Assembly (NCBI GenBank): GCA_004022145.1
Contig: RCNU01000014.1
Direction: 5' to 3' (one strand)
Length of the DNA: 47,419 nt
Source: Paecilomyces variotii
Taxonomy: Eukaryota
Part shown: positions 19,264-25,914 of the stretch, piece after piece
Numbering within the stretch: the stretch's first letter is position 1
Layout of the letters: each line of letters begins with the position of its first letter
Notes under the pieces: generated by a model
What the model saw: the letters and a program-made list of their open reading frames with translations, nothing else
The model's database searches: none
What the model was told of the DNA's origin: nothing
Translations under genes and position numbers: made by a program

Positions 19264-19284
19264 CCGTTGACGGCCCGGCGGCGG
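19264..19284. promoter_or_regulatory. Two CCG-N4-CGG everted repeats upstream of the CAD-like gene
   Basis: CCG-TTGA-CGG (19264-19273, inside the palindrome GGCCG-N4-CGGCC) and CCG-GCGG-CGG (19275-19284), just upstream of a TATA-like element (~19234-19238). Confidence 0.6.
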
Positions 19285-19463
19285 AATGCGCTTTGACTGA
19301 GTTGATGGTGAGGTCTACTCTTGGCTCTTACAATGTTTGGTGATTACCTAGTAAGATTCTTGATCTCGTATCGGAAATACTTCACAATCCAGTTCTATCA
19401 TTGCATCGCCTACTCCACCCACAAAAATTATATCGGATCACTACTTCAAAGTCGCTATTCCTA

Positions 19464-20064
19464 TCACTCTGTCCTCTCCCAAATCCCAATCCAACACCCC
19501 CAGGAAATGACTTTATCCTGTAATCCCTGCCTTATTTCTTCCTTCGACGCAGGCCTTCTCAGTTTACTCTGATCGAGTGCCTCTTTCAAAGCCACAATCT
19601 GAAAGAAGTACCGATGAGGTCCATGACCTAGAAACCCTCTAGGGGGCATGTAAACAACCTTCCGCCGATTGAGTCCATACTTGAAACCCCCCACGAAGGT
19701 TGCATTCTCCCGTATTACCAACGGGACAAAAGTCGTCGTGGCAAAGACTGGTCTTGCTGGCGGGAATGCCGTAGTAGAGTCCGTGAACCACGGGTTCCGC
19801 GAGAGGCGCATCGGGATCTTCGAGAATGAGAAGATACTCAGCGGCATTCTGCTGCGGCGTCCAAGATAGCGTCGGGAAATGGCCTTCTTCAAATGAGCTG
19901 AATTTGGATGGGATGGGGGATCCTGAGGGTCCGATGGAACATTCCACCTCTATTGTTGGGGTGTGATGCAGGGCGAAGGGGGCTGATTTATGGAGTAGGC
20001 CGGCGTCGTGGCCACGACGGGTGTAGAGAAGCCAGGCCAGGGATCGTTCGATAAATTTCGACAT
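19464..20064 (-). pseudogene. PEBP (YbhB/YbcL-like) protein with a +1 frameshift (pseudogene or sequencing error)
   Basis: N-terminal half (EDPDAP..PVVHGLYYGIP) and C-terminal half (YMPPRGFLGHGPHRYFFQIVAL) are in different frames, meeting at ...CGT GGGGGG TTT CAAG (C6 run 19687-19692 on +). The span is 601 nt = 3n+1. Confidence 0.8.
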
Positions 20065-20202
20065 CTCAACAACTCAACAACTCAATATAAAAAGTTTCGC
20101 GAATTCTGATTGTTTCTGAATGGTAGGAAAGGGCTGGTAAATGAAAGCAAGACGTAAGATACCTGTTAACTTAGGTATCTGATAATGTTTAAAAACATAG
20201 GC

Positions 20203-20287
20203 CCGCTAACGGGGAGACTACGGTGCTTATCTACGGTATTCCTAACATGAAAACCCAAGTAAGTAACTGCTCGCGGCCCGTTTTCGG
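20203..20287. promoter_or_regulatory. Two CCG-N4-CGG sites in the PEBP/TF divergent promoter
   Basis: CCCG-CTAA-CGGG (core 20203-20212) and GCCCG-TTTT-CGGGC (core 20278-20287). Confidence 0.6.
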
Positions 20288-22720: not shown

Positions 22721-22940
22721 ATTCGAAGGATCATTCGCCTCTGTAACTGATGTTAAAAGTAGAGAAAATTTTTTATGACCATGAAGGAACTCATTGGGAC
22801 ATCGGTTACCTGTCAGAGCCTTGGCCCCGCAACAAGCGTGATTGGAGGTATTCAAGTGCCTTATTCCCAACAAATGTCCGCGGGGACTAAGATCATAAAA
22901 AAAAAAGATAATCTGGATTGATAGCCGTAGCTAATGACTA

Positions 22941-25780
22941 CTACCACTGCAAACCAGCATGCGGATGAGCACCCTCATTCTCGACCGAAATCTCGTTCGC
23001 ACCACCCAGATTCTTCGGGCCCGTCATCTTCTCAAACAAACTATTCCCAAACTTCTGGAACGCAGATGCAATACCACCATATTTGAAAAGCTCCCTCTCC
23101 ATACGACTGAGCTCGAAGCCGAACCGCTTCCCATCGACCTCGATCAATCTCGCCGTGAAATCGATCGAGATCTCGGCCCCATCCGCAGCAGACTCATAGA
23201 AAGCATCGTCAGTCATGGTGATACCCAGGAGACCGAGATTTGGCATATTCCGCTGGAAGATGAAGGCGAAGGACTTGGCGATAACGCACTGGACCCCACA
23301 GCCTGGAAAACATTAGACGAATACTGCGTCGACGATGAAAAGATCTGGTAGTGGTTTACCTAGAAGCGCCATTACGGCTTGCTCTCGTGATGACCCACAC
23401 CCGAAAGCTTTGCCTGCAACAATAATGTTAAACCCGGCCTTGACGCGCTGGCGGAACTCGGGGTGCGTCAGCTGTAGACAGTGCGATCCGCTGATTTCGT
23501 TCGTTTTCATGTTCATCAAAAACATGGCCGGAGCCAACTACATGGCAATATGAGTTTCAACGCCTTGGTCATATAGAATCAGGTGTACGTACTGCGTCCG
23601 TGTCGATGAAGTCGCCAAGTAGCTGGACTTTCCCTCTCATAATGTTCCCATCAGAGGGCTTATCGTGCCCAGAACGGGATTTCGAGTGACATAAACCCGG
23701 AGTCTGTACATTCGACCCTCTTGGGTTTGTGGGAGCGCCACTTGGTTCAACATATGTTGGGCCCTTCGACACCGACGGTAAAGCTTTACACGAAGAAATC
23801 CCTCGAAGACGATTCCATCGCTCCAGGTCAATAGCTGCCAGTAGTTCATGTGGGTCCCGGACTTTCATCTCGAACGATGAGGCGGCTACTGTCGCTGCTG
23901 AGGATAAGTTTCCGATCGATCCTAGTTCATCTTGTTATTCGATGCTACTGACCCAGTGCATAGAGGAAACTCCAAACGTAATGAGAAGAACTCACCTTTA
24001 CCCATCCGATTCTCAAAGTTCCGATTCTGCGAGGAAAGCCACACTTCTCCGGGCCCAGCCTGGTCGGCGGACATCCCGACACAATAACTGCACCCTGGGA
24101 TACCGATCTCAAAGCCGGCGTCCTCGTAGAATGTTGCAAGTCCTAGTTCCTGTAGTCTGTGTAGGATGGGCATCGATCCCGGGACGACTTTTCTCTTCCC
24201 TCTAGGAATGGGCTTCAAGCCATTCTTCAATCCCTGTTCGAGAACGAGAGCACCCAGAATCAAGTCCTCTTCTGCGGTAGTACAGGCGCCGATAAAACAT
24301 CCGTCCAAGTCCATGCCCTCTTCGTCTGTGACGGGTACAACATCGTCCGGATTAGGATATTTGGCTATAAAGGAACGGACGTTACCGAGATCAATGGTAT
24401 GAGTTTCGGCGTAGACGGCATCTTCGTCCGGTTGGAAGTAAACGCCGGCATTCTTGTGTCGGAGCAGATGACGTCTTTGAATAAAGTCTTCTGTAATCTC
24501 ATCCGGTACAAACACTCCAGTGATACCGCCAAACTCCTAGTTTTTGTTAGTGCTTCACTGTAGGATGAAGGTGTGGATGATGCTTACAGTTGTCATGTTG
24601 CAGATAGCAAATCGGGCATCACAGGAAAGATGTTTCGCGCCTGGCCCACTGAATTCTACAATTCTATCCGCTGCAACGGTGTTTCGCTTTAGCTGCTGGA
24701 GGATATAGAGAATGGTATCTTTCCCCCCAATCCCGGGTTTGGGAGCGCCGGTTAAGCGGATATTCACCGATTCAGGAACCTTGAACCAGGTTTCTCCTGT
24801 TACCAGGGGCAAAGTGACATCGGCTGCCCCAAGCCCGATAGCAAGACAGCCCAGAGCCCCTGACGAGCATGTATGGGAGTCGGATCCGATAACTACCATT
24901 CCAGGTTGGGCGCGTTCTCGGTAGAACTCGGTGTGAAGAATGGTGTACTGTGAATTTGATGAGTAGACTGCACGGAAAGCTAGATGCTCGGATACATACA
25001 TTCATTCCCTGGTAATCGGTCATTTTGAAGACTCGTCTAGCACGCTCACTTGCGTCAATCAAAGCCTGAACCTTGGGAGTTTTGTTCACACGCGGGTCCA
25101 CGACATGGTCGCCAGCTAGCCAGAAACGATCATTTCTGAAGATCCCTGGTTTCCCGAGCATGTTATACGTGCGTTCCATTCCCTGTGCGCAACGTCAGAG
25201 ACGATACTGGTGCTCATAAATGGTTTATACTCACCGACCACGAAGCCTCGGAGGCAATGACCCAGTCAACATCTACTCGGATTAACTCACCGGGGGCAAC
25301 GGAGCCCTTCCTGTCAATGTCATGGAAGGCGAAGATCTTCTCGCTGAGGGTCATACCCCGTCGCCCGGGTGGTCGGAGTGAAAGCGGTACAGGCGGTGAC
25401 TTCGCTCTGTCAGCAGAGTTCAAGGCCTCTAGCCATGCCGATACCAGGAAAAGAATTTCGGATTCCTGATCTCCGTTTGTAGTGACAGACTTTGTCAATC
25501 CAAGGCCTCCGAGCTCTGGGGGTTGGCTGCAAATGGCGATCACATCTGAAAGTGCACTGCATTCACGAGGGTGGTCCTGCTTGAGGATATTTGCCAAGAC
25601 AGACAATTGTTTTAGATAGCCTGCAGTGTTGGCCAGTTCTTGTTCTGTTACGGGTCAGTAGTCTATACGCATTAATAGAAGGGTTGTAGCTTAACCGTCG
25701 TTGTCAGACAAGATGACACCCCTACTCTGCTGGAGAGTCTGGAGTAGTTTGTGCAAACTAGATTGTTCTCCTCGGTCCAT
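22941..25780 (-). CDS. Aconitase superfamily [4Fe-4S] hydratase/isomerase (isopropylmalate isomerase/homoaconitase-like, fused large + swivel domains); multiple introns
   Basis: [41 protein letters not shown] and PGCSYCVG (three cluster Cys), [36 protein letters not shown]. First exon MDRGEQSS... from ATG 25780; start uncertain. Confidence 0.9.
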
Positions 25781-25904
25781 GTTGAGTCGTAGAGTTCAAG
25801 AATGATTCGTAATTGATTGAAATTGAAGGGACGATTTGTTCGCAGATAGAAATCTATAAATCCCCGAGCCTGAAGGCTCCTGATCAGCCTGGCACGGTAT
25901 CGGC

Positions 25905-25914
25905 CCGCTTGCGG
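25905..25914. promoter_or_regulatory. CCG-N4-CGG site in the middle of the hydratase/lyase divergent promoter
   Basis: CCG-CTTG-CGG within CGGCCCG-CTTG-CGGCCCG (25901-25918), roughly midway in a 240-bp intergenic region with TATA-like elements on either side. Confidence 0.6.

Follow-up and report, generated by a model that had tools for sequence, protein, structure and literature searches.

Five adjacent genes of Paecilomyces variotii appear to be controlled by a regulator encoded among them, through predicted elements in each of their promoter regions. We analyzed a stretch of 47,419 nt from contig RCNU01000014.1 (assembly GCA_004022145.1), called the window below, in which the five genes occupy positions 17651-27032 and include a Zn2Cys6 regulator of the Leu3/LeuB family. 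In the reading that we prefer, and to which we give a probability of about 0.6, the five genes form one regulon that is driven and autoregulated by the embedded Leu3/LeuB paralogue via elements based on CCG-N4-CGG, that is, everted CGG half-sites four bases apart. The cluster was delimited by Pfam scans of stop-to-stop open reading frames (ORFs) and by comparisons with solved structures (E, expect value), and it contains the following genes.

17651..19149, minus strand: MmgE/PrpD-family gene, closest among solved structures to cis-aconitate decarboxylases (CAD), E 4e-29.
19464..20064, minus strand: PEBP-family (phosphatidylethanolamine-binding-protein-like) gene, divergent from the regulator gene.
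20442..22720, plus strand: Zn2Cys6 regulator of the Leu3/LeuB family, about 640 aa, with seven exons supported by RNA.
22941..25780, minus strand: aconitase-superfamily gene of the isopropylmalate-isomerase (IPM-isomerase)/homoaconitase type, from solved-structure comparisons that included the orthologue at a distant locus (L002, described below).
26021..27032, plus strand: lyase of the PEP-mutase/isocitrate-lyase superfamily; its closest solved relatives are the A. niger 2,3-dimethylmalate lyase (E 1.5e-58) and then oxaloacetate acetylhydrolase.

All three promoter regions of the cluster contain CCG-N4-CGG sites. We scanned the window with CCGNNNNCGG and found matches at 19264, 19275, 20203, 20278 and 25905, exactly the five positions reported in an earlier reading of this DNA that was made from the sequence alone (the sequence-only reading). 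That reading had also claimed that the sites cover every cluster promoter and are enriched there (about 0.2 expected), and both claims hold: within the 931 nt that make up the three intergenic intervals (19150-19463, 20065-20441 and 25781-26020) there are five sites, compared with 0.137 (that is, 0.14) expected from a first-order Markov model of each interval. None of 20,000 draws from these models gave at least four sites, and a fraction of 5e-5 had at least one site in each interval. Four independent loci is a fair count because sites 1 and 2 overlap, and the Poisson probability of at least four is 1.3e-5, or 6e-4 after multiplication by the 48 half-site arrangements that were scanned.

The enrichment was also apparent across the whole window. 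There were 10 matches to CCG-N4-CGG in 47.4 kb versus 3.2 expected, a number reached (at least 10) in none of 100 whole-window shuffles, and half of them fall within the 931 nt of cluster promoter. The remaining five (at 4585, 5968, 7452, 10555 and 18064) are outside the cluster promoters and have no G/C flanks, and at least three of them are inside coding ORFs, those for an aldehyde dehydrogenase, a fumarylacetoacetate hydrolase (FAA hydrolase) and the PrpD-like protein. The longer palindromes that the sequence-only reading had described are present as GGCCGTTGACGGCC at 19262 (GGCCG-N4-CGGCC) and GCCCGTTTTCGGGC at 20276 (GCCCG-N4-CGGGC).

The predicted element is longer than a plain Leu3 site. 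Lining up the sites revealed a third half-site outside the core, missed in the sequence-only reading, giving the 14-nt pattern CGG-N1-CCG-N4-CGG. Exact matches to this pattern occur five times in the window, at 19264 (minus), 19271 (plus), 20274 (plus), 25901 (plus) and 25905 (minus), all in the three cluster promoters, versus 0.06 expected, and at least five matches were obtained in none of 100 shuffles. When the outer spacing was scanned from 0 to 6, N1 gave the five matches and every other spacing gave none. There was no exact extended site at any other gene in the window. The individual sites are as follows.

19264..19284, both strands: sites 1 and 2, a composite in the promoter of the PrpD/CAD-like gene, 114-125 nt upstream of the ATG; the overlapping CCG-N4-CGG cores are CCGTTGACGG and CCGGCGGCGG, the exact extended pattern occurs once per strand (19264-19277 minus and 19271-19284 plus), and the whole lies in a CGG-rich run.
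20199..20212, plus strand: site 3, AGGCCCGCTAACGG, in the divergent PEBP/regulator promoter, with its core at 20203-20212; a single base (AGG instead of CGG) separates it from the extended pattern.
20274..20287, plus strand: site 4, CGGCCCGTTTTCGG, in the same divergent promoter; an exact tripartite match inside GCCCG-N4-CGGGC, 154 nt upstream of the regulator ATG and 213 nt upstream of the PEBP ATG.
25901..25918, both strands: site 5, CGGCCCGCTTGCGGCCCG, in the divergent promoter of the aconitase-like and lyase genes, 124 and 106 nt, respectively, from the two ATGs; a perfect four-half-site palindrome of 18 bp with an exact tripartite match on either strand.

Each start codon of the cluster, including that of the regulator itself, has one element or pair of elements 106-229 nt upstream. 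In the strain sequenced in runs X15 and X17, an A-to-C change at 20199 makes site 3 an exact match to CGG-N1-CCG-N4-CGG; in the same strain, four nucleotides are inserted behind 20218, immediately 3' of site 3. Elsewhere in the window, CGGCCCCGAGTCGG (14473, minus strand) is a one-mismatch match to the extended pattern near the shared 5' ends of two flanking Zn2Cys6 genes. Its inner CCG is broken, and chance alone would give about 1.9 one-mismatch matches in the window.

Within the extended element, the everted core is favored as the part that would be read, because it alone is kept in every instance, even where the outer CGG is missing, as in site 3 and in the two L002 sites upstream of the regulator gene. 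A scan of half-site spacings in the three promoters gave five everted N4 pairs, six direct N8 pairs and four inverted N1 pairs; we attribute the direct and inverted counts to by-products of the composite CGG-N1-CCG-N4-CGG.

The DNA-binding domain of the regulator is intact in a corrected gene model. The gene has seven exons on the plus strand (20442-20543, 20603-20709, 20770-21096, 21149-21586, 21647-21912, 21975-22493 and 22557-22720), and all six introns were seen as GT..AG joints in RNA contigs from run X16. Intron 1 splits the zinc cluster, which is encoded by exons 20442-20543 and 20603-20709, both backed by RNA joints. The public model (P0001, 650 aa) starts upstream in another, wrong frame and is without the zinc cluster, and an A. 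niger model (P0004) is wrong in the same way. Exon 4 of the regulator gene and the lyase exon encode sequences with 100% identity to P. variotii proteins. The zinc cluster reads CRQC-RQAKIR-C-ELSTGGPIP-C-SR-C-RRMGHD-C, or CX2CX6CX9CX2CX6C, the Leu3-type spacing, which is also found in the L002 orthologue.

Homology places the cluster regulator in the Leu3/LeuB family of Zn2Cys6 regulators. We used as a query for the DNA-binding domain the A. carbonarius orthologue (P0005), whose N-terminus is correctly predicted and which is 67% identical to the window protein. Among all solved structures the best match was the DNA-binding domain of Leu3 (2er8; E 1.4e-6), with residues 19-85 of the query aligned to residues 2-68 of Leu3, 67 residues without a gap that cover the zinc cluster, the linker and the coiled coil; the next matches were Ppr1 (E 0.16) and Gal4 (E 6.9). 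Two other Zn2Cys6 genes of the window, used as controls, matched Hap1/Cep3 (E 0.002-0.004), and Leu3 was absent from their matches at E <= 10. Candida LEU3 (P0175) matched the Leu3 structure with E 8.6e-21. In a multiple alignment, cysteine spacing and linker length were identical in the cluster regulator, three LeuB-clade proteins and Candida LEU3. The Leu3 linker reportedly specifies binding to everted repeats (work attributed to Mamane et al., 1998). PMC10954478 describes the linker as having a part in binding specificity.

The resemblance extends well beyond the DNA-binding domain. In BLASTP comparisons with A. nidulans LeuB, the window protein was 33% identical over 423 aa (E 4e-75) and the A. 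carbonarius orthologue 32% identical over 589 aa (E 3e-98), with no gap in the DNA-binding domain, and the homology spans the middle and C-terminal regulatory region as well. We searched a family profile built from 14 orthologues against 1.84 billion representatives and retrieved 2551 proteins at E <= 0.001, 488 of them at E <= 1e-30. Candida LEU3 (5e-61), Yarrowia LEU3 (5.7e-77) and the LeuB cluster were within the best 150 of the 2551 matches, and the profile positions covered by the Candida and Yarrowia proteins were 6-578 and 144-577, respectively. We looked up the names of 30 of the best 150 matches: five were Leu3 or LeuB (Candida LEU3, Yarrowia LEU3, the A. nidulans 'protein leuB' AN4486, a JGI LEU3 protein and Trichoderma LEU3), 13 were nameless and the rest were generic, and no other characterized regulator was named among these 30. 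Less was gained from other searches. Pfam at E <= 1 recognized only Zn_clus and Fungal_trans in the regulator, a protein atlas search returned only generic 'Zn(2)-C6' clusters, and a word-index search with the DNA-binding region alone returned the 10 closest orthologues and retrieved neither Leu3 nor LeuB. Taken together, the structure match, the identity to LeuB and the profile matches agree with the description of the regulator as Leu3-like in the sequence-only reading.

Phylogenetic trees support the view that the regulator is a paralogue within the Leu3 family, as the sequence-only reading had suggested. We built one tree with FastTree (131 rows, matches shorter than 500 aa excluded) and a second with IQ-TREE in quick mode (48 rows picked from clades of the FastTree tree), both rooted on another Zn2Cys6 gene of the window. 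In both trees, the window regulator, its orthologues from Eurotiales and the L002 regulator formed a 13-row clade (support 99 and 98) with LeuB and LEU3 outside it. A LeuB orthologue was the other identity considered for the regulator, and it was rejected on the same placement. In the IQ-TREE tree, the LeuB clade contained proteins from Trichophyton, Ophidiomyces and Fusarium, and LeuB grouped with LEU3 of Saccharomycotina (support 91), a grouping that was not found in the FastTree tree. The order of the duplications is unsure because the root rests on one long outgroup branch.

Part of the arrangement is conserved at a distant locus. L002, 18 kb of a 36-kb metagenome contig, encodes a regulator that is 49% identical to that of the window, with the zinc-cluster intron at the same position. 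The genes are in the order major facilitator superfamily (MFS) transporter (minus), regulator (plus), lyase (minus) and aconitase-like (plus), so that the regulator/lyase/hydratase core is kept and the PrpD-like and PEBP genes are absent. Two exact CCG-N4-CGG sites are 253 and 75 nt upstream of the regulator ATG. Of all 17-mer comparisons between the two regulator promoters, the closest pairs the second of these sites, CCCCGCTCACGGGGAGA, with window site 3, GCCCGCTAACGGGGAGA (15 of 17 positions identical), a score that 3 of 200 shuffled promoters also reached. The promoter between the lyase and aconitase-like genes has CGGCCCGGTTGGGG, which is one mismatch from the extended pattern and has the same lyase-facing orientation as site 5. 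The whole locus has five CCG-N4-CGG matches versus 1.97 expected, which is not significant alone (at least five in 9 of 200 shuffles). The upstream neighbors of the L002 regulator are a P-type cation ATPase (1034-4819) and the MFS transporter (5807-7239). The transporter takes the place of the PrpD-like and PEBP genes, and the divergent promoter with both CCG-N4-CGG sites is common to transporter and regulator.

Linkage of the regulator to the lyase extends to other genomes. Contigs of equal size, the shortest of them 96.5 kb and 56 kb, indicate indirectly that orthologues of the two genes are linked in eight genomes or contigs. In A. nanangensis, the tags of the regulator and lyase orthologues, FE257_011754 and FE257_011756, are two apart. 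Other species with such contigs are A. floccosus, A. ambiguus, A. sclerotioniger, T. proteolyticus, T. islandicus and P. capsulatum. Another locus, L001 (1338 nt), contains only a fragment of a related regulator, without a promoter.

Based on these results, we infer that the cluster regulator occupies the sites, activates the cluster and regulates its own gene. The regulator would bind the everted CGG half-sites four bases apart as a coiled-coil homodimer, and the outer CGG, one base beyond the core, may raise affinity or separate the regulator from LeuB. Elements located 106-229 nt upstream of the ATGs would then drive all five genes, the regulator gene among them. The regulator would act as an activator, its activity set by a 2-alkylmalate-type intermediate of the pathway much as alpha-isopropylmalate sets that of Leu3, which it activates (PMC6221358, PMC8262921). 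By analogy, an intermediate of this type is a reasonable candidate ligand because characterized relatives of the cluster enzymes act on alkyl-substituted malates and maleates and the regulatory region is homologous to LeuB throughout.

A more specific version of this proposal is offered tentatively, and we consider it possible rather than probable. The LeuB paralogue may have kept the logic of Leu3, in which an intermediate turns a DNA-bound repressor into an activator, and may now serve a separate, conserved catabolic module, with the longer element avoiding cross-talk with LeuB. The module would consist of the CAD-like decarboxylase, the IPM-isomerase-like hydratase and the dimethylmalate-lyase-like enzyme, and could convert an alkyl-substituted unsaturated di- or tricarboxylate to pyruvate and a short acid. 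The four-half-site element CGG-N1-CCG-N4-CGG-N1-CCG would perhaps accommodate two overlapping dimers.

Several observations weigh against a single autoregulated regulon. Conservation was assessed at one distant orthologous locus, L002. The sequence-only reading had proposed conservation of the sites in orthologous promoters as a check, and at that locus the regulator promoter has its two exact sites, whereas the lyase/aconitase promoter has no exact CCG-N4-CGG and only one-mismatch forms. Neither of the two L002 sites in front of the regulator gene has the outer CGG. The comparison with the X15/X17 strain is uninformative on conservation: divergence from the window is about 0.5%, and among the 40 of 90 differences listed, none is in a 10-nt core. 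Specificity of the motif was assessed within the 47-kb window rather than genome-wide. The spacing counts (N8 6, N1 4, N4 5) leave the half-site pair that is actually read unfixed, and, since LeuB in this fungal group binds the identical core, occupancy by LeuB is indistinguishable from occupancy by the cluster regulator. Finally, no spliced joints of the PrpD-like and PEBP genes were among those listed from the RNA contigs.

The identical core raises the alternative that the sites are targets of the housekeeping LeuB, alone or with the cluster regulator, which would tie the cluster to leucine and alpha-isopropylmalate status and leave the embedded regulator to act elsewhere or to compete. In Aspergillus, LeuB has been shown to bind CCG-N4-CGG both in vitro and in vivo (PMC6221358), as well as CCG-N5-CGG (PMC8262921). 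The recognition stretch CRQ.K.[KR]C and the linker length are common to LeuB and the cluster regulator, so that cross-recognition is plausible, and an IPM-isomerase-like enzyme is encoded within the cluster. However, the extra half-site and the G/C flanks are outside the LeuB/Leu3 consensus as given in PMC6221358, PMC10954478 and PMC8262921, sites in the regulator's own promoter, both in the window and at L002, are expected of a pathway-specific autoregulated factor, and the regulator and the enzymes remain together across species. We therefore regard control by LeuB as unlikely, while considering it the more serious of the alternatives.

Control by a different zinc-cluster factor is less likely still. 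Such a factor, encoded at 12421-14550, at 14578-16499 or at an unlinked position, would read direct CGG-N8-CGG or inverted CGG-N1-CCG repeats, and the likeness to a Leu3 site would be incidental. In its favor, these two arrangements are as frequent in the three promoters as the everted one, and the two further Zn2Cys6 genes are 1-7 kb from the cluster. Both neighboring factors, however, are weakly Hap1/Cep3-like and outside the module conserved at L002, and it is the everted core that persists wherever the outer CGG is lost. It is very improbable that the sites are G+C-rich palindromes that arose by chance and play no part in regulation. The promoters are indeed CpG-rich (13-19 CpG each), and sites 1 and 2 overlap within a stretch rich in CGG, but neither the simulated promoter sets nor the shuffles reproduced the sites, the Poisson probability stays at 6e-4 for four loci after correction for 48 arrangements, and a site is the best-conserved 17-mer between the promoters of regulators that are 49% identical. 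We consequently retain regulation by the embedded Leu3/LeuB paralogue as the preferred explanation.

A pathway-specific Zn2Cys6 regulator with sites in every promoter of its cluster is the commonest arrangement in filamentous fungi, and the cluster regulator can be compared with several known systems. The CGG triplets recognized by zinc-cluster proteins can be arranged as inverted, direct or everted repeats, and Leu3 reads the everted CCG-N4-CGG (PMC10954478), which is the predicted core of the cluster sites. S. cerevisiae Leu3 (2er8/2ere/2erg) and the cluster regulator share the cysteine spacing, the linker length and the coiled coil that follows, without a gap, and yeast LEU3 orthologues are strong full-length matches of the family profile. 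On the other hand, the LEU3 proteins retrieved are 791-1012 aa versus about 640 aa for the cluster regulator, the two are in separate clades, and the cluster regulator, unlike Leu3, is associated with an organic-acid cluster instead of leucine genes and has sites with an extra CGG.

LeuB (AN4486; AFUA_2G03460) resembles the cluster regulator in its DNA-binding-domain architecture and is 32-33% identical over almost the full length, including the regulatory region. For A. fumigatus LeuB, electrophoretic mobility shift assays, surface plasmon resonance and chromatin immunoprecipitation sequencing all show binding to CCG-N4-CGG, and this binding is lost after a CCG-to-CTG change (PMC6221358); A. 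nidulans LeuB uses CCG-N5-CGG as well (PMC8262921). LeuB acts globally, on genes for branched-chain amino acids, nitrogen and iron, whereas the cluster regulator is encoded within a small group of enzyme genes together with which it is conserved.

Among known motifs, that of Sef1 likewise combines an everted N4 core with an additional, third CGG beyond the core. The consensus in L. kluyveri and C. albicans is CGGnnCCGnnnnCGG, the targets include genes of the tricarboxylic acid cycle, and Sef1 is reported to have no orthologue outside Saccharomycotina (PMC8557406). The outer spacing differs, with two bases in the Sef1 motif and one in the cluster element. The N2-spaced pattern of the Sef1 type had no exact match in the window (seven matches, each with one mismatch), compared with five exact matches for N1. 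The one link between the two proteins is the source-given name of the T. islandicus orthologue of the cluster regulator (P0017), 'Putative transcription factor SEF1'. The main text of PMC2447501 mentions neither Sef1 nor Leu3.

The regulator lineage and the extended motif appear to be undescribed. A literature search, from whose coverage most subscription journals are missing, found no description of the cluster or of a clustered LeuB paralogue. New here are the assignment of the orthologue group to Leu3/LeuB, the corrected gene model, the extended element and the link to a conserved lyase/hydratase module. The results give a conserved, uncharacterized organic-acid cluster of Eurotiales a concrete predicted cis-element and a named candidate regulator, set its boundaries at five genes and restore the zinc cluster that the public gene model is without. 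Relatives of the enzymes make or cleave acids of the itaconate and alkylmalate types, which are of industrial interest. The cluster also poses a question of paralogue insulation, namely how two Leu3-family factors with the same core site in one cell avoid cross-talk. Leu3 with alpha-isopropylmalate has served as a metabolite-responsive switch (PMC2930855), and if the ligand of the cluster regulator is a pathway intermediate, the regulator and its 18-bp element could act in the same way.

Run X16 shows that the regulator, aconitase-like hydratase and lyase genes are transcribed and spliced: besides the six introns of the regulator gene, its RNA contigs contain joints for seven introns of the hydratase gene and for two of the lyase gene. 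This evidence consists of contigs, the depth of which ranks neither expression nor co-regulation. One contig from the X16 RNA library covers 17600-20541 without interruption and so joins the PrpD-like gene, the PEBP gene and both promoters to the regulator gene, where it is spliced. A frame break near 18857-18888 of the PrpD-like gene is left unspliced in that contig, which could represent read-through, pre-mRNA or DNA carry-over.

The pairing of a PrpD-family gene with a PEBP-family gene is known from biosynthetic clusters for maleidrides, which are derived from alkylcitrates. Neither a polyketide synthase gene nor one resembling citrate synthase was present among the ORFs that were scanned from 2 to 34 kb of the window. 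To the left of the cluster are the two additional Zn2Cys6/Fungal_trans genes (12421-14550 and 14578-16499), which are mutually divergent, and three upstream neighbors without an extended site.

3600-5261, minus strand: aldehyde dehydrogenase.
9257-10075: amidohydrolase-like ORF.
9816-11477: ORF with FAA hydrolase and alpha/beta-hydrolase domains.

The G+C content is 43-54% from about 2.3 to 34 kb of the window and 17-27% in the flanking blocks. These low-G+C blocks, positions 1-2300 and 34000-47419, resemble decayed repeats or AT-rich isochores of the type produced by repeat-induced point mutation (RIP).

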